Assembly (NCBI GenBank): GCA_052327205.1
Contig: CM126234.1
Location: 28,520,001-28,584,000 of the forward strand
Length of the DNA stretch: 64,000 bases
DNA from: Somniosus microcephalus
Lineage: Eukaryota
Reading direction: 5' to 3'
Shown piece by piece: positions 12,397 to 63,625 of the stretch (position 1 is its first letter; each line of letters begins with the position of its first letter). The notes below the pieces were generated by a model. It was not told where the DNA came from and ran no database searches. It was given only the letters and a program-made list of their open reading frames with translations. The translations under genes were made by a program, and so were the position numbers.

Positions 12397-13173
12397 CTGA
12401 AAAGAAAGGATTAGAGTTTAAAATCAGAAAACACAGAAAATAATCGGCAAGGAAGGGAGGTTAAAGGTAATTTAATTTATAATTCTGTTGGATCAATATA
12501 TTGTAAATAAAATCAGTACCAAATTTCACAATTCTGGTTTCAGGAATGGTAACAATTGAAACCGTCTGTTTTCAAATTCTATTACAATGTCAGCAGTGCA
12601 ATAGTTAAAACGAATTAAAAGAAAGCTGCTTTGATATTCATTCAGAAACACAAATGGTCAAGGCAACATCCTCTTGGCATTATCCTGACCCTGTCAAAGT
12701 TTAGGATCAAGGAGTGCCAAACTCTGGTTGGCCTGCATGTTTCACCATCACAATGAAGACATCAGGAAAAGCAAAGCACTTTGAAATCACAAGCTTACAA
12801 AAGGAGACCTAGGCTATTTACTGACCAGTGGAATATGGACCAGCCAAACTTAATTTAGAGTGGGTCAGGAATGTAACTTTAAACTAGCGCTGGAACAAAA
12901 ATAATTTAAACTATAAATAAAACCTAAAACAACCAGGGAGATCTCTCTCACTTCTACCTGCCAGTGATAGTAAACCTCAAAAACAAACAGGATTCCTCCC
13001 AATTTAGGAAGTCTCAAAAGTTCCTAATCGATAGCATTTTGTTTGGACAGTGGATGGTTGAAATACCTTTTCATTTGGACGTTGGATATTAAAATTGGGC
13101 CCTTTCCTCAGAGGACTGAATATAAAAATCTCCAATTTAGGGGTGGAATTAATCAAGACCAATTAAATACCAT

Positions 13174-13845
13174 GGCCTAGAAATTCGGTGGCGCCCAGCT
13201 CGCCGGAAGTTCCGCCCCGGAAGGAGCTGATTGCGCCAGCGCGATATTCAGTTTCAGCGCCCCAAATGGAAGCGGGGCGCTGCTCGAGGCGCCCCGCGTC
13301 CCTCTTGGGGCGCTGAAACTGAATATCGCAGCACAACGTGCCGCAGCGCCACACGCTGCGGCACGGCAGGCCTTCCTCCCCTTCTTAAAGGGGAGGGGCC
13401 TGCACCAGCGCGATCAGAGATCGAGAGTGCCGGCAAAAGAGCCCGGCACCGAGGAGAGGTGCCGGGCTCTTGGGACACAGCCGGCACTGCCCGGGGGGCT
13501 CAGGAGGCCGGCGCGAGGAGGTGCTGGCAGGTGGCCAGCAAAAAAAATGGCCGCCCCGCACCTCCCCTTTAATTAGCGCCACTACCGCCGCAGGTCGGCC
13601 CCCCTGAACTGGTCACAGATTGCGACCAGCGTTACAGCGGGGGGGCGCGACCCAATATTGCGATTGGGGCGGTAGCGGGGCGCTGCGCACACCGATGACG
13701 TCATCGGTGGTGGCGCAGCGCTACAGGCCAACGCCGCCATTAGCGCCCCGCTAAATTTCACGGGGGGCGTGGCCAGTGGCGCTAAAGCCACTAAGTGCCC
13801 TCTTTGGGCGCTATCTGGTGGCGCAGCCCACCGAATTTCTAGGCC
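13174..13845. mobile_element. Young GC-rich MITE, 672 bp, perfect 18-bp TIRs, apparent 3-bp TSD CAT (PIF/Harbinger-like by TSD length)
   Basis: cat|ggcctagaaattcggtgg ... ccaccgaatttctaggcc|cat. CpG-rich, non-coding. Superfamily assignment is inference. Confidence 0.85.
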
Positions 13846-14334
13846 CATGTGTTTAAGCCCAACACAAGAACTTTCAAGGCTCTCTCTTAATCTGATATTA
13901 AATAAAAAATGCATAAAAAGAAAATGGAGCTCAACACCCAAACAAAAAGAAAATTCTACGACAAAAATGAAGCTTTTACTTCTTAAAAGGTTACTAAGCA
14001 TTTGCAACTTTGTTGAAAGTCCACACACACACACACCCCCCAAGAGCCAGAATTCTGCATAAAACTGTAAAGCAAAACCAAGACTTTATGCGGCCAGATC
14101 ACCATGGTGGATTATGCAGAATGCACTGGATCCAGTACAATCAACTGCATCATCCAGTTTGCTCCTTGTAGGGTTGAGTTCCCCCTTAATTTAGTTGCAA
14201 ATATAGGAAAACATTTAAATTGCCGAGGGGAAAAGCATTGGTCAGGACTAAGACATGGAAAAACACAGTTGTACAATAACCTAACCCTCCACTGTCCTTT
14301 TGGGACATTAAAAAAAAAACACAGAAGCTCTTAC

Positions 14335-14466: not shown

Positions 14467-17400
14467 CTGCTGATGAGAGAAAGCACCCTAAAATCTGGTG
14501 ATCAACTGATGCACATTGTACAGGCAGCATTGGGAATAACAATGGAACTTGCTTCGAACCAGCTTTAGCGATCATTTTATACCGCACAACCGTTTAAATT
14601 CTTGTTAACCAATTCCACTTTGGCAACAAAAATAATCAGAGCTCCAATACACTTTACGAGGCATTTTGCGCATTTGCGCCACAATTAAAGAGACCGACAA
14701 ACTGTCGGCAATTCCATAGTTTTGCCAGCTCTTAATTGTAATTTTCCGGAAGGTGGCGTACAAGCAGAATGCATTTTAGTTTTTTTTTATATAAAAGAGC
14801 ACGGTGCAGTATACGAGATGTGCAGCTTGAACCCTAGCCCACATTGAGTGCACTCACAGCATTCACTCCATGTGGCGTGCATTCTCAATGCAGTTACAGG
14901 TCATCGATTTACCCTGTTTGAGCAGCGCCATGTCTTTAACTAGGTCCTATGTGAAAGGAGTTTGGACAGCCTCAACCCAGTTTCAAGTAGCCATAGGCCC
15001 ACAGCACAAAATTGCCCCTAATTCGACATTTATTGGCAATCTCAAACAGGCCATAATAATTGCTGGTGTGGAAAGTGGAAACATTCTCACAGGTGATGCT
15101 GAAGCACTAAAGGAACAGAACAGGCTTACCCGGGTGTGCTCGATACCGATACTGGGTGACTAAAGTGGAAAAAGTGCTCCACTCCCCAGCACGGACATCT
15201 TTCACCTTGATGAGAACTAAATTCATTTGAAACAGTTCAACAAAAATAAAAAGTTTATGGAGGTTGAACAAATGAGGAGAAACCTTTGTTCGCACCAAGT
15301 GTTTAAAAACAAATTTTACACAGTCACTATTGAGGACATTCAATTGCCACCAAGGTTCAAAAGGTAAAGGAAGAACATGAAAAGATTAGAACACCTGATC
15401 CCTATTGCTAACACATTAACGCTCCTTCACCACTGACCTCCCCAAGGCCTTCCCAGTTTCCTACAAAGCTGTGAATAAGACAATAGCTGCAAATTTGCAT
15501 TGGTCATTAGAATTTTGCAGTTGTAGTATTAATACCGTAGTTTGTTCCATTAAAAATACAGAGTTTGGCTCTCCCAACAGTTCAGTGATGAGCTGACTTG
15601 GGTCCCAGGCTCGATTCCTGGTTTGGAGGGGCTGTCACAGCTGGGGGTGGAAAGAGAGAAAGAGACAGCCAGGGTTCCTGCTCCTAAATCACAATCCCCG
15701 TCTTGACTCTCACAAATAGCAGCCAACTGGCCAGCACCCGTAGAAAAGTACTCCAGCAAGGAGTCAATCCCTTCAGTAGTAGTAGATTAGGGGAAAAGCA
15801 AGAAAATTGGCAGAAGGGGGGGGGGGGGGGGGGGGGGAAAACTATATTCGATACTAGATTTAAACTTCATTGTAAACCAGAAGGCCAGCTTTCAGGTAGT
15901 AAACAGATTTCTTAATTTCAGTCTTTGGCTGTTAACTTAGTACTGTGTGAACAAAACCAGTAATGTATTAAATATTAGTAATGGAAGATCTGCTCCAAAG
16001 TCTTCAACATGGTTATAGTGTAAAACATATATTTAAGACAAACACAGCTACTGGACCTAGTTAACGGCAGGTATTTTTCGATAGAGTTGCTGCGATGTTC
16101 AGTATGCTCTCCATTTTGGTACTACTGGTGGGTTGATCCCAATTTTCATTCGATTTCCCCCCTCCACCCAACCTCTCCTGAAGTCACTGACTCATGCTGG
16201 GATACGGTGGGCATCCTATGCAGGTACTGGAGGGCTTGCTCTCGCTCTTCATTAAAGAAAATATTTCATGCAGAAATCTCATGCACATTTCAAAGACAAA
16301 AACCCAGCATGTAATTCAAGTATGTTGACAAAGGCAGCCCGCCAGTACCTCAGCCAAGTGGCCATTCTTCATGCATAAGCCTAGATTGAATGTCAGTAGG
16401 GTATATGACCGTCCTCATCCTATATCCACACACAGTATTTTGTTGTCGAGACCACTGGATAGCAATCAGAAGCAGGAACCATGACTGATATTTCCGCTCC
16501 CTAAACGGGTGGCTGAGGCCAATTTTAGCAGCCAACTGCCTTTTATCTTCTATACTAGCTATCTGGTACCTGACTATCAGTAGTACTATAATCTACAACA
16601 TCACATCAGTGTATTTTATTAAATTATGTTGCGAGCTGGACTGCATTTCATAGTGAAAGATTTAAGCTGTACCATTAGGTGCAAATATTGAATTATATTT
16701 GAGAGTCAGCTGGAGCGAGACACATGCATTTTCTTTGGCTTTGTGGCTTTAGGCATACATAAAACCAAAGTTTAAAACGTACAGTGGTCAGGAGAGTGGT
16801 TAATGGTCGGCTGCAAAAGTGCCACCAGTCAGTAGGGATGTGAACCCAACCACTTGAACCCTACCTGGAAAGAAGAAAGCTTTAACACACCTACTTCTGA
16901 AAGGTCTGCAATTTTAGAGCTGGTAGACAGCAAACAAGTGGTGACCTGAATCCATGAAAACTAGCGATATAAAATTGAACTGCCTGATTGCACAGCAGTA
17001 CATAGAAACCAATCTCTAAGAGTGTACAGCAATCTCAAATTTTACATTTTTATCTGCAGAAATGGAGTTATCAATATTCTGACATCGTCATTAGTAAGGG
17101 TCAGTAGATACAAACTTCACGAAGAAAAATATACAAGAAAACTGGTGTGAACCATCAAAGTGACAGCGACAGGAATCTTGGTAAAACTCTACTCGTTCAC
17201 TATAATACGCTATTTAGCAGATTCCCAAACACCACATTATTGCGAGAGTTCACTATATTAACAGCAGAATTGAACCAGTTTACAGACTGCATTTATTAAT
17301 ACTGGAAATGAGATACTAAATCTACTGCATAAATAGTTGTGAACTTGCATTGATGGAAGCACAACAGCCCACAAATTACTGTTTGTGACATGAGCATACA

Positions 17401-30300: not shown

Positions 30301-30723
30301 AAACATGAAAACGCATGCTTGTGGTGCGAATGGCACATTGAATAGGGTCCGATATGGGTTTAGGTGAGAACAGTTGTGGAGAAAGCGGATATAATTAACT
30401 CATAAGTTAGATCTGTCAGGTCTTGCTCAGTCATATGCCGATTTAAAACGGTAACCTATTTTAATGCATCTCACTTTGAAAAATAATCATTCCATATATT
30501 TAAGCAAGTTTGCAACTGATCTCTCTCTATTAGCAGCCCACTCCTTACGTTTTCCCCAATACCAGCAGGTCTTCATACATATTAGAACAATGGACACTGG
30601 TGAGTCACTTTAAATTACAGCCTTCTAATCAAGTTCATCTATTATAAGGTACAAGAGAGAAGCTAAAAGTAATTTGCACCAGTCACTAAAGAGTGCGGCC
30701 TTGACATTACTTACAAGGTACCA

Positions 30724-30870
30724 GTGCCAATAGTTTCCTTTGTGCTTTAATTTTAATGAATTTGTAGACATATCTACAAACACTGCATTTATGGATTTGT
30801 TAAGAGTAATGCAGAGTGGAAAATACCTTCATAGACCTTTTTATGCTTCGGCCATGGTCTATATAGAAAC
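30724..30870 (+). repeat. Left copy of a 147-bp direct duplication flanking the hAT element
   Basis: gtgccaatagtttcc...tctatatagaaac, about 95% identical to 35618-35763. Confidence 0.95.
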
Positions 30871-31301
30871 TCGGGTTGCGAAGGGGTGGAAAGTTTCCGG
30901 TAAATTTCCCACGGGAAGTTTAGCCCAAAAAAGCACATGCTAGCATAATATTGTTTTTTTTTTTGTATTTCTTTCATTTTTTTTCCTCCCACAGGTCATC
31001 TCTTAAAATTACTAAGAGATGGAATCTTAATTATTAAGGAATTTCTTAATCAATATATGTTTCTCTTCTTGGCTTGTTTTAATAATTACAAGTTTTGTGT
31101 GACTGTAAACAAATGTGTCCTGATTGGTTGGATGAGTGGGTGAGCGATTAGCTCCCTCTATTGGTGATGTAGTGTCGTGTGTGCACAGGTCATGCTTCCA
31201 TCACATGGAGCATCAGGAAAAATGTACTCGCCCTGTTGCAATCGTGCTGATCGACCGCAGTTCGACACAGACGAATGCCCTTTATTTCTTTGCATAGAAC
31301 A

Positions 31302-34300
31302 ATGCCACGTTTACTGTCGGATGTGTGGAAGCATTTTACCGCAGGCATTAAAAATGGAAAGACTGTGTACATGTGCAAACACTGTACAAAGCCATATGTA
31401 AAGAATGCCACAAAGATGCAACAACTTCACTCAAAGCTCACAGCAGTCAGCCCAGAGTTCCTCTGCTTCCATTCAAGAAGATGATGGTTCACATCGGGGG
31501 AAGGCCGATTTTAATATGATAAGGCAGGATCTGGCCAAAGTGGACTGGGAGCAGCTACTTATAGGAAAATCCACATCAAAACAGTGGGAGACTTTCAGAA
31601 GGGAAATAGAGAGAGTACAACGCCAACATGTTCCTGTAAAGGTCAAGGGTGGGACCAACAAGCAAAGGGAACCTTGGATGACAAGGGATATACAAAAATG
31701 CATTAGGAATAAAAGGGGGGCTTTTGGCAGTTACAAAAGACTAAAGACGGAAGAAGCCCTAGAGGAGTATAAAAAGTGCAGGGGCGTACTTAAAAAAGAA
31801 ATTAGGAGGGCGAGGAGGGGCCATGAAATAACACTGGCGAGCAAAATAAAGGAAAATCCTAAGATGTTTTATAAGTATATTAAGGGCAAAAAAATAACCA
31901 GGGAAAGGGTAGGGCCCATTAGGGACCAAAGTGGCAATCTGTGTGTAGAGCCAGATGAGGTAGGTGGGGTTTTAAATGAATTTTTTGCATCTGTGTTCAC
32001 TATGGAGAAAGAAGATGCAGACATAGAAATCGGGCAAGGGGACTGTGACATACTTGAACATATTAGCATCGAGAGGGAGGAGGTGCTAGCGGTTTTAGCA
32101 GGCCAAAAAGTGGATAAATCCCCAGGCCCGGACGAGATGTATCCCAGGCTGCTGTGGGAGGCAAAGGAGGAGGTTGCAGGGGCTCTGACACAAATTTTCA
32201 GAACCTCTCTGGCCACAGGGGATGTACCAGAGGACTGGAGAACAGCTAACGTAGTACCATTATTCAAGAAGGGTAGCAGGGATAAACCAGGGAATTACAG
32301 GCCAGTGAGCCTAACATCTGTGGTAGGGAAATTATTGGAAAAAATTCTGAGGGACAAAATTAGTCTCCACTTGGAGAGGCAAGGATTAATCGGGGATAGT
32401 CAGCATGGCTTTGTCAAGGGTAAATCATGTCTGACAAATCTGATTGAATTTTTCGAGGGGGTGACTAGGGGGGTGGATGAGGGAAATGCTGTGGATGTGG
32501 TTTACATGGACTTCAGTAAAGCTTTTGACAAAGTCCCGCATAGGAGACTGGTCAAGAAGGTAAGAGCCCATGGGATCCAGGGTGCCTTGGCGCGTTGGAT
32601 CCTAAACTGGCTGAGTGGCAGGAGGCAGAGGGTGATGGTCGAAGGTTGCTTTTGTGACTGGAAGCCTGTGTCCAGTGGGGTACCTCACGGTGCTGGGTCC
32701 CTTGTTGTTTGTGATCTACATAAATGATTTGGATGAGAATGTAAAAGGTATGATCAGTAAGTTCGCAGATGACACGAAAATTGGTGGGGTGGTAAATTGC
32801 GAGGAGGAAAGCCTCAGGCTACAGGACGATATAAACGGGTTGGTCAGATGGGCGGAAAAGTGGCAAATGGAATTTAACCCTGAAAAGTGCGAGGTGATGC
32901 ATTTTGGACGGACAAATAAGGCAAGGGAATACACAATGAGTGGTAGGACCCTAGGAAGTACAGAGGGTCAGAGGGACCTTGGTGTACATGTACATAGATC
33001 CCTGAAGGCAGCGGAACAGGTAGATAAGGTGGTTAAAAAGGCATATGGGATACTTGCCTTCATTAGCCGAGGCATAGAATATAAGAGCAGGGAGGTTAGG
33101 ATGGAGCTGTACAAAACGCTGGTGAGGCCACAGCTGGAGTACTGTGTGCAGTTCTGGTCGCCTCACTATAGGAAGGATGTGATTGCTTTGGAGAGGGTGC
33201 AGAGAAGATTCACCAGGATGTTACCTGGGATGGAGCGCCTCAGCTATGAAGAGAGGCTGGACAGGCTGGGGTTGTTTTCCTTGGAGCAAAGAAGGCTGAG
33301 GGGGGACCTGATTGAGGTGTACAAAATGATGAGGGGCATAGATAGGGTAGATAAAGAGGAACTTTTCCCCTTAGTAGGGGGGTCAATAACAAGGGGGCAT
33401 AGATTCAGGGCAAGGGGCAGGAGATTTAGAGGGGATTTGAGGAGGAACTTCTTCACCCAGAGGGTGGTTGGAATGTGGAACTCAATGCCTGAAAGGGTGG
33501 TAGAGGCAGGAACCCTCACAACATTCAAGAAGCATTTGGATGAGCACTTGAAATGCCATTGCATACAAGGCTATGGACCAAATGCTGGAAAATGGGATTA
33601 GACTGGACAGGGATGGATGGGCGGCGCAGACACGATGGGCCGAAGGGCCTCTTTCTGTGCTGTAAAACTCTATGACTCCTCTATGACACATTCAGCATCA
33701 GGCTCCTTATCATCAGCAACTCCTGGCCCACTTGGAAGGTTCTTTGATACGATGGATAACCATAGCCAGAAGAATGCAGATGAGTGCCTTGCTCGAGCTG
33801 TATATGCGACAGGCTCACCCCTCATGCTCACAGCCAATGTGTACTGGAAGAGATTTTTCAATGTTATTCGCCCTGCATACTGTCCTCCCACCAGACATGC
33901 TTGGTCTACTTATTTGCTGGAGACCGAGTATAACAGAGTCCAAGGAAACGATAGAGATGGCAGACTGTGTTGCAGTTATCTCAGATGGGTGGTCAAATGT
34001 ACGAGGGGAGGGCATCATAAACTACATCGTCTCCACTCCTCTCCCAGTGTTCTTCAAGAGCACAGACACGAAGGACAACAGACACACAGGCACATACATT
34101 GCTGATGAGCTGAAAGCGGTCGTCAACGATCTTGGATCACAAAAGGTCTTTGCAGTAGTTACTGACAATGCTGCGAATATGAAGGCTGCTTGGGCTCAAG
34201 TGGAGGAGGCGTACCCTCATTGGGTCTATTGGGTGCGCAGCTCATGGGCTCAACCTGCTCCTCAAGGACATCATGGGTTTGAGAACCATGGAAACACTGT

Positions 34301-35279
34301 ACAAGAGAGCCAAGCAAGTTGTTAAGTATGTCAGCGGAAAACAGGTAGTTGCAGCAACCTATAACTCCAAGCAAATGACAAAGAACAAGAACACCACACT
34401 GAAGCTGCCCAGCAACACTAGATGGGGTGGCAGTGTCATAACGTACAACAGCCTTCTGGAGGGTAAGGAGTCGCTGCAAGAAATGGCAATATCCCAGTCT
34501 GGGGATATGGAAACCACCATCAAGAAAATACTGCTGAATGATGTGTTTTGGGAGAGAGTGGTTAGCAGCCTTAAACTACTCTCACCAGTAGCATCTGCAA
34601 TTGCTCAGATTGAAGGAGATGACGCTGTCTCGTCAGATGTTCTCAGGCTTTTTGCTGATTTAAAAGAACAATTCAGCATTGCCCTACCCACATCCCTGCT
34701 GCTCAAAGCAGAGGAGAAGGCAATTGTTCAATTCATACAGACGTGTCAAGAATTTTGTGTCAAGCCGATTCATGCTGCAGCATACATGCTGGACCCAAAG
34801 CATGTTGGGAGACCAATACTTTCCGGAGAACAGATCAACAGCGCTTACAGTGTGATTCTACCCTCTCACACCATCTCAATCTGGATGTGGGCAAAGTTCT
34901 GGGAAGTCTGGCAAAGTTCTCTACCAAGCAAGGTCTTTGGAATGGGGATGGGATATGGGAATCATGCAAGCATATCAGTGCACATACCTGGTGGAAGGGA
35001 CTTTGTGCATCTGAGGCCCTGTCACCTATTGCATCGGTGATGCTCCAAATCCCACCTTCATCAGCGGCCTCTGAACGAAACTGGTCACTTTTTGGGAATA
35101 CGCATACAAAGGTGCGCAACAGGCTGACTAACAAGAGAGTGGAGAAACTGGTGGCTATCCGGGCGAACCTACAACTTATTGAGCCAGATACAGAAGTGTC
35201 CACCACACAGCTAGACAGTGACACAGAGGAGGAAATGGACACGTCAGAGCCAGAGTCAGAGAATCAGGAGGAGCAATGA
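31302..35279 (+). pseudogene. hAT transposase pseudogene, split by the CR1 insertion and several frameshifts
   Basis: MPRLLSDVWKHF...CKHCTKPYVKNATKM (BED finger); ISDGWSN, VVTDNAANM, GCAAH, NTRW, HAAAYMLDPK, WW, PPSSAASERNWS...RNRL spread over ORFs 31275, 33617, 33732, 34273 and 34743. Confidence 0.92.
31495..33686 (+). mobile_element. 5'-truncated CR1 LINE (2.2 kb of ORF2: RT domain and C-terminus, plus 3'UTR) nested in the hAT transposase
   Basis: ORFs 31405..32727 and 32654..33601: KSPGPD, PGNYRPVSLTS, QHGF, DFSKAFD, FADD, RPQLEYCVQFW, WNSMP. One frameshift in the GVPQG motif near 32688; ctctatga tail; cacat duplicated at 31490-31494 and 33687-33691. Confidence 0.96.
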
Positions 35280-35617
35280 TGAGTAGAAGACTCCGAAGAC
35301 TCATGAGTAGAAGACTCAAAAGTAGAAGACTCAAAAGGGACAAAATACAGGCTAAATAAGCTGACGCTCTTTTTATTTTATTTTAGATGGGTCTTTTTTG
35401 TGGGGGTTCAATAAAGTTCAAAGTTATAACCTAAATAAAGTTTTGAAAGCCTGTTTTTATTTGTATGGAACAGTATGTCTATTTTGATGACAAAGATAAT
35501 ATAAGGGTCAGAGACAAAAACCATCAGTGTGCAAAACAACTCAAAATTCCCATAAATTTCCGAAAATTCCCATGGAAAGTTTCCTCTTTTAAAAATTCCC
35601 GGAATTTTGCAACCCTA

Positions 35618-35763
35618 GTGCCAATAGTTTCCTTTGTGCTTTAATTTTAATGAATTTGTAGACATATCGACAAACACTGCATTTATGGATTTGTTAAGAA
35701 TAATGCAGAGTGGAAAATAACTCGATAGACCTTTTATGCTTTGGCCATGGTCTATATAGAAAC
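35618..35763 (+). repeat. Right copy of the 147-bp direct duplication flanking the hAT element
   Basis: Begins immediately after the right TIR and matches 30724-30870. Confidence 0.95.
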
Positions 35764-35831: not shown

Positions 35832-36622
35832 TGATAGAAACATAGAAGATAGGAGCAGGAGTAGGCCATTCGGCCCCTCGAGCCTGCTCCGCCATTCAAT
35901 GCGATCATGGCTGATCATCCAAATACAGTACCCGGTACCTGCTTTCTCCCCATACCCCTTGATCCCTTTAGCCTTACGAAATATATCCAACTCCTTCTCA
36001 AATATATTTAATGAATTGGCCTCTACTGCCTTCTGTGGTAGAGAATTCCACAGGTTCACCACTCTCTAGGTGAAGAAATTCCTCCTCATTTCTGTCCTAA
36101 ATGGCTTACCCCTTATCCTTAGACTGTGACCCCTGGTTCTGGACTCCCCAACCATCGGGAACATCCTTCCTGCATCTAGTCTGTCCAGTCCTGTCAGAAT
36201 TTTATAAGTTTCAATAAGATCCCCTCTCATTCTTCTAAACTCCAGTGAGTACAAGCCCAATCGTCCCAATCTCTCCTCATACGTCATTCCTGCCATCCCA
36301 GATATCAGCCTGGTGAATCTTCGTTGAACTCCTTCCATGGCAAGAACATCCTTCCTCAGATAAAGCGACCAAAACTGCACACAATACTCAAGATGTGGTC
36401 TCACCAAGGCCCTGTACAACTGCAGCAAGACATCCTTGTTTCTGTACTCAAACCCTCTCGCTACGAAGGCCAACATACCATTTGCCTTCTTAACCACCTG
36501 CTGCACCTGCATGCTTACCTTCAGCGACTGGTGCACAAGGACACCTAGGTCTCGTTGCACTTCCCCTTCTCCCAATCTATTGCCATTCAGATAATAATCT
36601 GCCTTCCTGTTTTTGCCACCAA
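35832..36622 (-). mobile_element. CR1 LINE 3' fragment (a different subfamily from the nested copy)
   Basis: ORFs 36066..36575 and 35694..36062 (RDLGVLV, RPHLEYCVQFW, LWNSLP); 3'UTR ggctcgaagggccgaatggcctactcctgctcct with a ctatgttt tail. Confidence 0.93.
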
Positions 36623-43347: not shown

Positions 43348-44156
43348 CTGCAAATGAACATCAGAAATGTCAGATGGAGCCATAAGACGACAGGGCTAGA
43401 CACCAGGTACGGGCGCTGTTCAAGACGGGCCAGCTGGCAACTAGTGTGCAGCAACCAAATTTTGTGAACCCTCATGGAGTACCCTTAGCCAAACATTTGT
43501 AAGTTTGAAGCAAGAGAGGAGCCAGCATTAGAGGACCTGTGCCAAACCTCAACTGGGAGATTATTGCGTACAGAAAAGGTGGGGGGGGGGGGGGGGGAAT
43601 CCAATTCTACAGCACTGTTGTCCTTCAGCTTATGAGCACACAATGAACATACATATATAAATAAAAACACAAGCACACAAAAACACACACACGCCATTTT
43701 ATTCATCCATGTAACTGCAAATAAGTAATTCTTCGGCAACATTTGATGATACGATAGCAGAGCTAGAAGACGTCTCCCTAGAATGAAGCAATAATTGGGA
43801 TAAAAGGGAGGTGAAAGCTCCACTCAAAGAACACAGTTTGGAAATAGACAGAATTGGACTCTTAAGTAATGAACAAGAACTATCAAAGGTAAATGATAGG
43901 ATGATAATGACTTGGAGTAGCAGACAAAAAAAAACTGTGGCATGGCTAAGGCAGCAGAAGCATTTGGAAAGGAAGAGAGCACTCGCTGAGATAAAGAGAA
44001 GACTTGGTATAAGTGACAGGACAAAGAAAAATATACACTACAGTTAAAATGGAGCCTCCTGTAACCACTGTGAAACAACCCACCCAACAGCTTACCAGTG
44101 AACACGGAGCATGAATTTTTCCACAACCACAATCGATAATGAGTGAATGTAACAGG

Positions 44157-44404
44157 TAGGGTTGCAAAGGGGTGGAAAGTTTCCGGTAAATTTCCGGACA
44201 TTTTCCACGGGAAGTTTAGCTTGGGAATTTTGCCCAAAAAAGCACATGCTAGCATAATATTGTTTTTTTTGTATTTCTTTCTTTTTTTTTTTTCCCCACA
44301 GGTCCTCTCTTAAAATTACTAACAGAGATGGAATCTTAATTATTAAGGAATTTCTTAATCAATATATGTTTATCTTCTTACTTGGCTTGTTTTAATAATT
44401 ACAA
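44157..44404 (+). mobile_element. Isolated left end (248 bp) of the same hAT family
   Basis: tagggttgcaaaggggtggaaagtttccgg...tttaataattacaa aligns to 30871-31091; preceded by the 8-mer gtaacagg (44149-44156). Confidence 0.95.
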
Positions 44405-44637
44405 AACTATAAATAGTACTGTACTGAAAATGTAGAAATTAGACAAAATACTTTGAACGCTGGAAGGTAGCAAACCTTGTGTGACTCTCCTCTCCCTTTT
44501 AAATTACATTACCTGTTACTAACAGGTAATGTAATTTAAAAGGGAGAGGAGAGTCACACAAGGTTTGCTACCTTCCAGCGTTCAAAGTATTTTGTCTAAT
44601 TTCTACATTTTCAGTACAGTACTATTTATAGTTTTGT
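44401..44637. repeat. Perfect palindrome: 118-bp arms, single-base centre (C44519)
   Basis: 44401-44518 is the exact reverse complement of 44520-44637, checked base by base. Confidence 0.98.
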
Positions 44638-45104
44638 GCTGGCCAAAGTAATACACATCAGTGCTGGAAAATGAAACACTTTTCTACTTTTGTTACCCGT
44701 GTCGGCATCCAGCACTCACGTCGTATACAGTATAGACAAATGCAATTTTACGGTCCCTGTATGCTGCCCCAAATAAGCACCAAGGTGAAATGTCCATACA
44801 GCCAAGTCTGTTCGCAGAGTTGGGAGCACTTTTGTGCTACGGACCTATCCCTTCCAGGAAATGGTCGACACTGTTCAAAACCATTTCATGCAGGAGAGAC
44901 ATTCACTCCTGCAGTTTGGACTGTGTGGAAATCCAGATCCTAGAGGTGACAGTAACAAGCCATCTACAAGTGCTATTCGAGACATAAGCCATTAGAATAA
45001 TCCAAAAGTCTGGAAGTACACCATTAAAGATCAAATTGTTCAGGAGAACTAGGCTCCCCCACAGTTGCCATCCATCAATTTTTTTTCCTCTCTCCCACAC
45101 GGTA

Positions 45105-45853: not shown

Positions 45854-46283
45854 AGGCTTATACTCGCTGGAGTTTAGAAGAATGAGAGGGGATCTCATTG
45901 AAACGTATAAAATTCTAACAGGACTAGACAGACTAGATGCAGGAAGGATGTTCCCGATGGCGGGGGAGTCCAGAACCGGGGGTCACAGTCTAAGGATAAG
46001 GGGTAAGCCATTTAGGACAGAGAGGAGGAGGAATTTCTTCACCCAGAGAGTGGTGAACCTGTGGAATTCTCTACCACAGAAGGCAGCTGAGGCCAATTCA
46101 TTAAATATATTCAAGAAGGGGTTAGATATATTTCTTGAGGCTAAAGGGATCAAGGGATATGGGGAGAAAGCAGGGACAGGGTACTGAATTTGGATGATCA
46201 GCCATGAATCTCATTGAATGGCGGAGCAGGCTCGAGGGGCCGAATGGCCTACTCCTGCTCCTATCTTCTATGTTTCTATGTTT
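45854..46283 (+). mobile_element. CR1 LINE 3' fragment
   Basis: ORF 45882..46187 (MRGDLIETYKIL...LWNSLP), then 3'UTR and a ttctatgtttctatgttt tail. Confidence 0.93.
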
Positions 46284-59505: not shown

Positions 59506-60594
59506 TAGATACCCTGCTAGATAGCATTCTATGGATGGCAGTCACCCTCTGCTACCTTTGTAGAAGTGCTAATTCCTCATGTGTGAGCCTGAACAATGGG
59601 TGTTGGCAGGCTAATCACTCACAGCCAAGCCCAATTCGGTCTTCAACTGACCATACGCATACAAACACTTCCCAACAGAGGTCACTGTATAGCAATCTGG
59701 GGTAAGAACCCTGGCTGATTTTTGTTCCTCTACGTGGCCAAGAGGTTGCAGTCACCAATTGTAGGACATCTACTGCCAACCCAACTGTGATCAGTTAACG
59801 CTGTAAAGACTGAGAATTAAATTCTGGAATCCACAGAAAACATGGTTCTAAACCGTAGAAATTGTAATAATTGATGGCAGCTGAAATAGATTACTCATAA
59901 TCCAAACTATTAAAAAGGTGAAAGAAAGGCAATATGGCAAATATATTGCCAGAAAAAGAGCTAGCACAGCCGAGAGACAAAAGAGCATTCCAATACCAGG
60001 AGCAGCAATGAAGTGCAATGTGCAAAATGGGAGCAGATAAAAGTCAGGGTCAGCACAAGTTGGAAATGTACAAACTGGAGGTAGAAGAGAATCACCCGAG
60101 GCGCTCAAAAGCTAAGAAATCTCAAACTTTTCCTAAACCTTCAACAGATTGACCATGACATTTTACGGCTCGTGTTAATGGAATGATGATGTAGAACAGT
60201 TGCAGCCTTGAGTAGGGCAGCCACCCATCAGTTTTCCAAGCTGCTTTAATGAAACTGTGCACATGCAGCCCGTTTCATGTCCAAAGCATTTCCAAGTACA
60301 GCCCCGTCCCTATCCAAGTTTTGGACAGTCAAAAGATAGCTGGGAAAGATGGTCGAGAAGAGAGTGAAATTTACCTCTCGGACATATCGCTGATTATTGT
60401 AGACAACAGTCTCTTGCAATAAATCATAATATTTGCTCTAGGTTCTGTTATCAAGAAGTTTAGTGCTTCTGCTAGGAAATCAGTTACGCCTCCATTACTG
60501 TAGGACTGGGAAAACACTGCACTGGATGTCAATCTGTAGCGTTCAAAACCACAAGGAAATTAGGTCAATTTCTCCCTAATCCTCCTCCATCACC

Positions 60595-61020
60595 CTAGAA
60601 CCAGAGGCCATTTGGCCCACTGTGTTTGTGCTAGCTCTTTGCTAGAGCAATCAAAATGTAATCCCAAAGTCCTATCCTCTCCCCATGGCCTTGCATCTTC
60701 TTTTACTTCAAGTATTTATCCAATTTTCCCCTAAAAGATACAATGGTTCTACCACAGCCACTCCCTGTGGCAAAGCATTTCTTGCTTCAGCAGCCCTCGA
60801 CGAGAAGAAATTTCTCCTAACCTCTCTCTTCTCTTCGTAATGATTTTAAATTGATGACGGTTTTCGAACCATGTATTCTGTGGATTCCAGAATTTAATTC
60901 TCAGTCTTTACAGAGTTCACTCCGACTCCCCAACCAGCGGAAATAGTCTTTTCCTATTCACTATCGTAATTTTAGAAATCTCTATTAAATTTCCTCTTGG
61001 CTTTCTCCGATCCAGTGGAA
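60595..61020 (-). mobile_element. Old CR1 3' fragment interrupted by a 64-bp foreign insert (approximate)
   Basis: gaggccatttggcccac...gagaagaaatttctcct...attttagaaatctctattaaat; insert at 60857-60920. Confidence 0.65.
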
Positions 61021-63520: not shown

Positions 63521-63625
63521 CACTCAGAGAACGGCTGGGTGAAGAGTGCTGACTGTTGGGTGTGCTCACCGTGGGACCCACCATCGCCCCAGAGAACTCT
63601 TTGTCCATTGAAGAGTCACCGCTCC
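63521..63625 (-). CDS. IKZF4: IKZF4/Eos coding exon (105 nt), N-terminal region GSGDSSMDKEFSGAMVGPTVSTPNSQHSSPSRSLS; upstream exon(s) outside the window
   Basis: Acceptor ttttcgtacag|GG, donor AGTG|gtatgt, phase 1-1. The peptide closely matches the Eos N-terminal SGDSSLEKEF...VSTPNSQHSSPSRSLS as I recall it. Confidence 0.93.

Follow-up and report, generated by a model that had tools for sequence, protein, structure and literature searches.

A 237-bp perfect palindrome in an IKZF4/Eos intron of Somniosus microcephalus: a probable scar of a hAT flank hairpin retained whole

Introduction

Evidence for hairpin intermediates of hAT transposition comes from biochemistry and from the short footprints that laboratory assays yield. 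The nearest precedent for the locus described here is probably Antirrhinum niv-525, in which Tam3 excision reportedly produced an inverted duplication of about 200 bp of flank, centered on the excision site and explained with a hairpin model. There, the donor site is said to be empty; it reportedly lies within a plant promoter and gives a dominant phenotype.

In plants, there is precedent for long inverted repeats next to hAT ends. Arabidopsis ET500 is described as carrying a 598-bp inverted repeat, attributed to a hairpin and abutting hAT sequence, that originated in the donor T-DNA and travelled to its new site, where it lies between the TIR and a target copy (PMC1978519). Shorter products are better documented for Ac/Ds in maize, Arabidopsis, yeast, and Candida. 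These P-nucleotide footprints are reported as palindromes centered on the complement of the element's neighboring base, mostly joined with microhomology, with arms that reach no more than 3 nt in C. albicans and 20 nt in S. cerevisiae (PMC5873905). Kat1 is reported to cut mostly 1 nt from the TIR (PMC4763223).

Related chemistry occurs outside the hAT superfamily. The P nucleotides at V(D)J coding ends, made by RAG and Artemis, share the flank hairpin (PMC6900584, PMC5499845), and RAG is described as cleaving precisely at the RSS–flank boundary (PMC6900584). Artemis and Pso2 are reported to open hairpins 2 nt 3′ of the apex, and removal of a hairpin from a distal nick is described for MRX/Sae2 (PMC3299998). 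Fold-back inversions at double-strand breaks, in yeast sae2/mre11 and in cancers, are likewise inverted duplications from a hairpin-capped end; those in yeast are reported to be primed by pre-existing inverted repeats, with loops of at least 3 nt in the sae2 and tel1 lists (PMC7467729). A comparison of rice genomes gives excision fillers of 1–123 bp, and its account of them does not invoke hairpins (PMC4423477). In open-licence papers, we found no vertebrate genomic example of the structure reported below.

Here, we analyze a window of 64,000 nt from Somniosus microcephalus (contig CM126234.1, positions 28,520,001 to 28,584,000). An original prediction, made from the letters alone, had proposed that a palindrome in this window records a hAT flank hairpin that, after resolution far from the tip, became joined to the element's left end. 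This core reading survives the tests available within the window: family identity, target-site pattern, position of the arm outside the element, microhomology, and center base.

Results

The palindrome is mismatch-free, as had been claimed. Its arms (44401–44518 and 44520–44637) are complementary at 118 of 118 positions (100%) around a single C at 44519, giving 237 bp in total. The window is free of N, and among its 13 perfect inverted repeats (arm at least 9 nt, spacer at most 10 nt) the runner-up has arms of 14 bp. The arm sequence has no further copy in the window, and the outer flanks run on as unique sequence on both sides. Coordinates are collected in Table 1.

Table 1. Features of the palindrome, the hAT family, and the host gene (positions within the 64,000-nt window)
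Feature	Position	Strand	Remarks
Left target-site copy, 8 bp, GTAACAGG, intact against the TIR	44149–44156	+	T at position 2, shared with the two further target 8-mers of the family
Solo left end (248 nt) of a fish-type hAT; 12-bp TIR TAGGGTTGCAAA, subterminal TTTCC/GGAAA repeats	44157–44404	+	aligns to 30871–31091
4-nt microhomology ACAA, common to element and inverted arm	44401–44404	+	family copy ACAA-G; arm ACAA-A; outer base unmatched
Added arm: the right flank's first 118 nt, inverted (putative giant P-nucleotide tract)	44401–44518	−	absent from family copy
Palindrome center C, complement of the G expected beside the lost right end; putative hairpin tip	44519	.	rule as given in PMC5873905
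Right arm, presumed original right flank; opens with 7/8 target bases, TAACAGG (44520–44526)	44520–44637	+	
AGTTTTGTG at arm end	44630–44638	+	identical, in direct orientation, to the element from the junction (31091–31099 in family copy)
Second hAT family copy, decayed and nearly full-length; used as reference for ends and transposase	30871–35617	+	
Left copy of 147-bp direct duplication, in place of an 8-bp TSD	30724–30870	+	right copy 35618–35763
Host intron of IKZF4/Eos, about 20 kb, upper border approximate	43348–63515	−	exons at 63623–63510 and 43347–43085
Eos coding exons	63623–63510, 43347–43085, 41072–40896, 19730–19578, 14452–14309, 12403–11675	−	

The center reads CCTGTTA-C-TAACAGG. 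As the original prediction had it, the seven target bases are followed inward by the complement of the G, at 44519, and the target GTAACAGG stands directly before a hAT terminus, with TAGGGTTGCAAA starting at 44157. Seven of the eight target bases recur at the center, and the right end of the 44157 copy is missing. That 8 specified bases should occupy one particular place by chance has a probability of 1.6e-5. Because that right end is gone, the assignment of 44149–44156 as a TSD is made from one end. Neither a right end nor internal sequence of the element occurs to the right of the palindrome within the window. We infer that the right arm is the original flank; a search of the window for old repeats in the flanks that could reveal the empty site gave only a 73-nt match at 70% identity, away from the junction.

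A search of the window against itself revealed a second copy of the family (30871–35617), which the original prediction had missed. The TIR at 44157 is the reverse complement of the right TIR that ends at 35617 (12 of 12 nt identical); as in hAT elements, these TIRs are short, begin with YAG, and match at both ends. Four subterminal motifs lie within 80 nt of the left end at 44157, versus 0.34 expected. The two left ends (44159–44404 and 30873–31091) align with 210 matches, 6 mismatches, and 6 gaps. Their similarity ends at ACAA (44404 and 31091, respectively) and then gives way to divergence, which bears out the predicted 4-nt joint at 44401–44404. The 44157–44404 fragment contains no coding sequence. 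The original prediction had itself raised the possibility that the palindrome belongs to the family consensus. We ruled out that it is part of the element: the family copy differs after ACAA and holds no arm sequence, this copy being the one reference. In the left end, a long pyrimidine tract ending in CACAG (44262–44301 and 30950–30994) resembles a splice acceptor; some 140 nt separate it from the terminus, and its strand is the one opposite to that of the host gene.

We examined the coding capacity of the second copy. Its transposase gene is frameshifted, with DUF659 and Dimer_Tnp_hAT above cut-off in two of the eight frames scanned; two further frames gave reverse transcriptase, from an inserted retroelement, and four gave nothing. 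For one transposase frame, 68 homologues were found among 2276 candidates, the top ones 62–71% identical, and the best named homologues are teleost proteins (62–69%). A named homologue of 615 aa maps onto the copy in five pieces over residues 1–45 and 62–591. The motifs SDGW, TDNAAN, CAAH, TRW, and ASER are present. A profile built from 23 named homologues among the 68 retrieves the Hermes transposase as the three best of 12 PDB matches; the match is weak (E about 1e-3), and the motifs TD, CxxH, and SER line up in it. The frameshifted copy therefore retains what characterizes a hAT enzyme, a DDE transposase with CxxH, a conserved W, and a C-terminal dimerization region. Since this family copy encodes a hAT transposase with the same TIR, 44157–44404 is, by homology, a hAT left end, in agreement with the original prediction. 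The inserted retroelement is 5′-truncated and carries a reverse transcriptase (about 31490–33660); it sits inside the transposase gene between about residues 45 and 62 and is presumably CR1-like. Contamination by stray family copies was considered in a prokaryotic genome collection, where the TIR pattern had 0 matches and the transposase profile gave 13 pattern matches, 0 of them confirmed.

The three target 8-mers of the family in the window, GTAACAGG, ATAGAAAC, and GTGCCAAT, have T at position 2 in 3/3 cases and A at position 7 in 2/3, GTAACAGG having G there. The central TA is found in 0/3, with three sites only. The target of Hermes is given as nTnnnnAn (PMC6900584) and that of Buster as nnnTAnnn (PMC3499496). 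As far as three sites can suggest, the family appears to resemble Hermes and to be unlike Buster.

Next to the ACAA joint, we noticed a longer match. From the junction, the family copy reads ACA-AGTTTTGTG-TG, and the flank at the arm end reads TAT-AGTTTTGTG-CT. When the element, leaving out the retroelement, is compared with 400 nt of flank, four direct matches of at least 9 nt appear, and one of them is at the junction. Among random position pairs, 10/20000 are as good as this in-register match; among junctions with a 4-nt inverted microhomology, the figure is 6/4594. Both values refer to a match noticed post hoc and to a family copy, 3% diverged, that serves as proxy for the lost sequence. 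If real, the in-register 9-nt match suggests that capture of an unopened hairpin through microhomology, and not a nuclease, may have determined how long the arm is.

We simulated the nick geometry by combining first nicks 0–3 nt into the flank with opening of either strand, which gives eight geometries. The simulated right flank consisted of the left 8-mer plus the sequence after the matching bases. Because this flank is itself taken from the right arm, the simulation is informative for the center only. Just one of the eight geometries rebuilds 44405–44700, namely, an offset of 1 with the bottom strand extended (3′ overhang). The original prediction had held that hAT footprints center on the complement of the adjacent base. 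This, the known footprint rule of Ac and Tam3, is what is found at 44519, and in the simulation the complement takes the central place only when resolution of the hairpin leaves a 3′ overhang.

The simulation also bears on RAG. The original prediction had likened the nick 1 nt outside the hAT end to that of RAG1/2; the hAT part of this statement stands, but the comparison fails, as RAG is described as cutting at the RSS border (PMC6900584), and the 1-nt offset is therefore a hAT trait not common to RAG. A RAG border cut would give an even palindrome, whereas the one observed here is odd, with a 1-nt center. Offset 0 did not reproduce the center in the simulation. There is no RSS heptamer at the center; the sole one in 43900–44900 is 83 nt to the left of the TSD. 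With offset 0 failing and no heptamer at the center, RAG involvement is ruled out.

The identity of the parts, the center base, and the microhomology can be read directly from the DNA. In this respect the locus resembles Ac/Ds footprints (PMC5873905): it has the same complement-centered palindrome (C at 44519), an arm that is flank and not element (judged on one reference copy), and a joint with microhomology (ACAA). However, Ac/Ds footprints have short arms and empty donor sites, whereas this locus has a 118-nt arm and retains 248 nt of the left end. It is therefore a variant and no ordinary footprint.

The arms show no divergence (0/118 mismatches in 44401–44637), compared with 6/147 in the neighboring family duplication (Fisher p 0.035) and 7/218 between the left ends (p 0.10). 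At the 95% level, the arms have diverged by no more than 2.5%. Perfect arms beside diverged neighbors imply that the event is younger, that the arms were homogenized, or that they are an artefact.

The second copy records a further irregularity. The 147-bp direct repeats around it align with 141 matches, 6 mismatches, and 1 gap, and the breakpoints fall at both termini of the copy. The duplication is a second aberrant event of this hAT family, 13 kb from the palindrome. Alternative transposition of the P element and Ac is reported to yield such products, and three hAT-associated duplications are given among 7611 hAT insertions in maize B73 (PMC3744419). Breakpoints at the termini are likewise found in P hybrid element insertion, in Ac SCT/RET, and in B73. 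In B73, an element starts each repeat, whereas here a single element stands between the repeats, with a possible footprint to the left of the first. The ends of two sister chromatids may have paired and inserted 147 bp away (hybrid-end type), or a local hop may have been followed by unequal crossover; both routes predict the 147-bp duplication as well as a footprint left of the first repeat. GTACCA (30718–30723), which precedes GTGCCAAT with five of six bases matching, could be such an excision footprint. This is suggestive only, with matches of this type at 842/63960 positions in this register and at 2085/63960 in any of nine.

The palindrome structure lies 0.8–1.3 kb from the 3′ end (acceptor) of the host intron. 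Among the best 120 of 1177 matches to the last exon (proteins of 144–459 aa), the best named ones are IKZF4/Eos at 59–68%, ahead of Helios at about 54%; no named cartilaginous fish occurs among these 120. The original prediction had placed the event in a lymphoid gene. The gene is IKZF4/Eos, but nothing points to a link between the event and RAG or lymphoid biology, and the lymphoid host gene is incidental to it.

Several other repeats were observed in the window. An inverted pair of retroelement sequences (35834–36257 and 45855–46279, 94% identical over 425 nt, 9.6 kb apart) brackets two Eos exons and the palindrome. A GC-rich stretch at 13163–13856 has 29-bp inverted arms (13163–13191 and 13828–13856, 86%) and internal perfect inverted repeats of 14, 12, 10, and 9 bp; it may be another non-autonomous DNA element. 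A 65-nt inverted pair (59793–59856 and 60857–60921, 92% identity, about 1 kb apart) could represent the TIRs of another DNA transposon. Isolated C2H2-like zinc-finger remnants of the CPTCDRDC..HLRTH type, at 16059–15997 and about 59419–59357 (both minus strand), lie outside the mapped Eos exons and are probably the ends of retroelement ORFs.

Discussion

The palindrome is very probably the scar of a hAT cut in which the flank hairpin was retained whole and joined to the left end. A hAT element would have entered the Eos intron at GTAACAGG. Later, transposase would have cleaved at the right end by a nick in the bottom strand, 1 nt inside the flank; the flank would have been sealed as a hairpin with G at the tip, whose apex was then not opened. 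The bottom strand would have kept the 118-bp stem entire, and ACAA/TTGT would have served as the joint to element DNA lying 248 nt from the left end. Copying of the bottom strand would have put C at the center and so produced the palindrome, with the rest of the element lost. The left end would either have stayed uncut throughout or have been restored by an abortive gap repair that copied it again. The hairpin, the order of these events, and transmission through the germline are what we infer from the junctions.

Artemis and Pso2 are described as opening hairpins 2 nt from the apex (PMC3299998), and the route taken by the palindrome was therefore not the normal one. The original prediction had the hairpin opened about 118 nt from the tip. 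We regard this as one of three routes, and the 9-nt match favors another, microhomology capture. By that route, the 3′ tail of the element would pair with the bottom strand of the flank at AGTTTTGTG and displace the top strand. The displaced TTGT end would prime on the neighboring ACAA, and the hairpin would therefore be captured unopened, with the bottom strand carrying it whole as a loop-out; replication of the looped-out hairpin would give the observed allele. We hold capture at the 9-nt match to be nearly an even call. A top-strand nick 118 nt from the tip, with flip-out and 4-nt end joining, is possible, and replication through the hairpin combined with breakage is doubtful.

That every junction base fits a hairpin, as the original prediction stated, is correct, but a double template switch during replication, with no covalent hairpin, yields identical letters. 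At ACAA, the nascent top strand would switch to the opposite strand at a point 118 nt inside the flank. Copying backward from there, it would pass the target G, which yields C, and the terminal TA of the right TIR, before re-entering the flank at G-TA. Since TA closes the right TIR and the target opens with G-TA, this path writes the same sequence as the hairpin, with microhomology at both jumps (4 nt and 2 nt), and it would lose the rest of the element in one step. It leaves unexplained, however, why the strand turned round at the element border. A 2-bp repeat like TA-G-TA (arm 2) is available at 80/995 nearby positions, so that a hit on the border would be a coincidence, and the path requires a jump over the entire element, whereas a transposase cut predicts the position directly. 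We consider template switching improbable. Intrastrand fold-back priming is ruled out: the loop would have to measure about 3 nt or longer, and the center is 1 nt. One-ended integration, by our reasoning, would give no odd-centered palindrome.

A fold-back artefact of library preparation or assembly might be suspected from arms that are perfect (0/118) next to duplicated sequence that is 3–4% diverged. Such an artefact has no means of centering on a target base, keeping an odd 1-nt center, or terminating in element matches of 4 nt and 9 nt; the putative empty site has no inverted repeat to pivot on, and both outer flanks are unique sequence. We judge it very improbable. Least credible of all is that the palindrome is an independent foldback element, a piece of donor site carried along with the transposon, or a selected RNA hairpin gene. 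Carriage has its parallel in ET500, where the 598-bp inverted repeat is described as having moved with Ds (PMC1978519), but there the second target copy lies outside the repeat, whereas here it is at the center and the outer flank, GCTGGCC, shows no TSD. The outer ends without a TSD and an arm that occurs in a single copy in the window rule out an independent MITE or foldback element. An RNA gene could be read from the predicted fold of the palindrome RNA (−206 kcal/mol, z −33) and from Rfam, in which five of the six matches at E ≤ 0.1 are miRNA models. The hairpin is so stable because the sequence is a palindrome, and all matches are below the gathering score, as expected for any perfect hairpin; with 0/6 reaching that score, an RNA gene is ruled out. 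The palindrome is most likely functionless, transcribed as intron only, and as a single intronic scar it is probably neutral.

Like ET500, this locus has a long, hairpin-attributed inverted repeat abutting hAT sequence. In contrast to ET500, the repeat here consists of local flank, is centered on the target copy, and has lost the cut end, and the setting is a natural vertebrate locus rather than a laboratory transgene. The yeast fold-backs differ in having loops of at least 3 nt in the listed cases, compared with a 1-nt center at a transposon border. The palindrome may be regarded as an unusually long and clean case of a known repair error, possibly with a new capture route.

Overall, the palindrome supports the established hairpin model and overturns none. 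With its TSD, 1-nt offset, 118-bp stem, and both microhomologies, the locus is a rare complete record of failed tip opening. It also provides a searchable signature, a TIR and TSD on one side and a palindrome centered on the TSD-adjacent base. A survey for this signature could measure the distance from the tip and the strand at which germline hairpins are resolved, as well as the share of long perfect palindromes owed to DNA transposons. More speculatively, and in our view rather unlikely, hAT flank hairpins in the vertebrate germline can escape apex opening and be captured whole, the family may hold a genome-wide, self-dating record of such events, and in fish-like vertebrates hAT excision may be a general, overlooked origin of long perfect palindromes and of dsRNA from introns.
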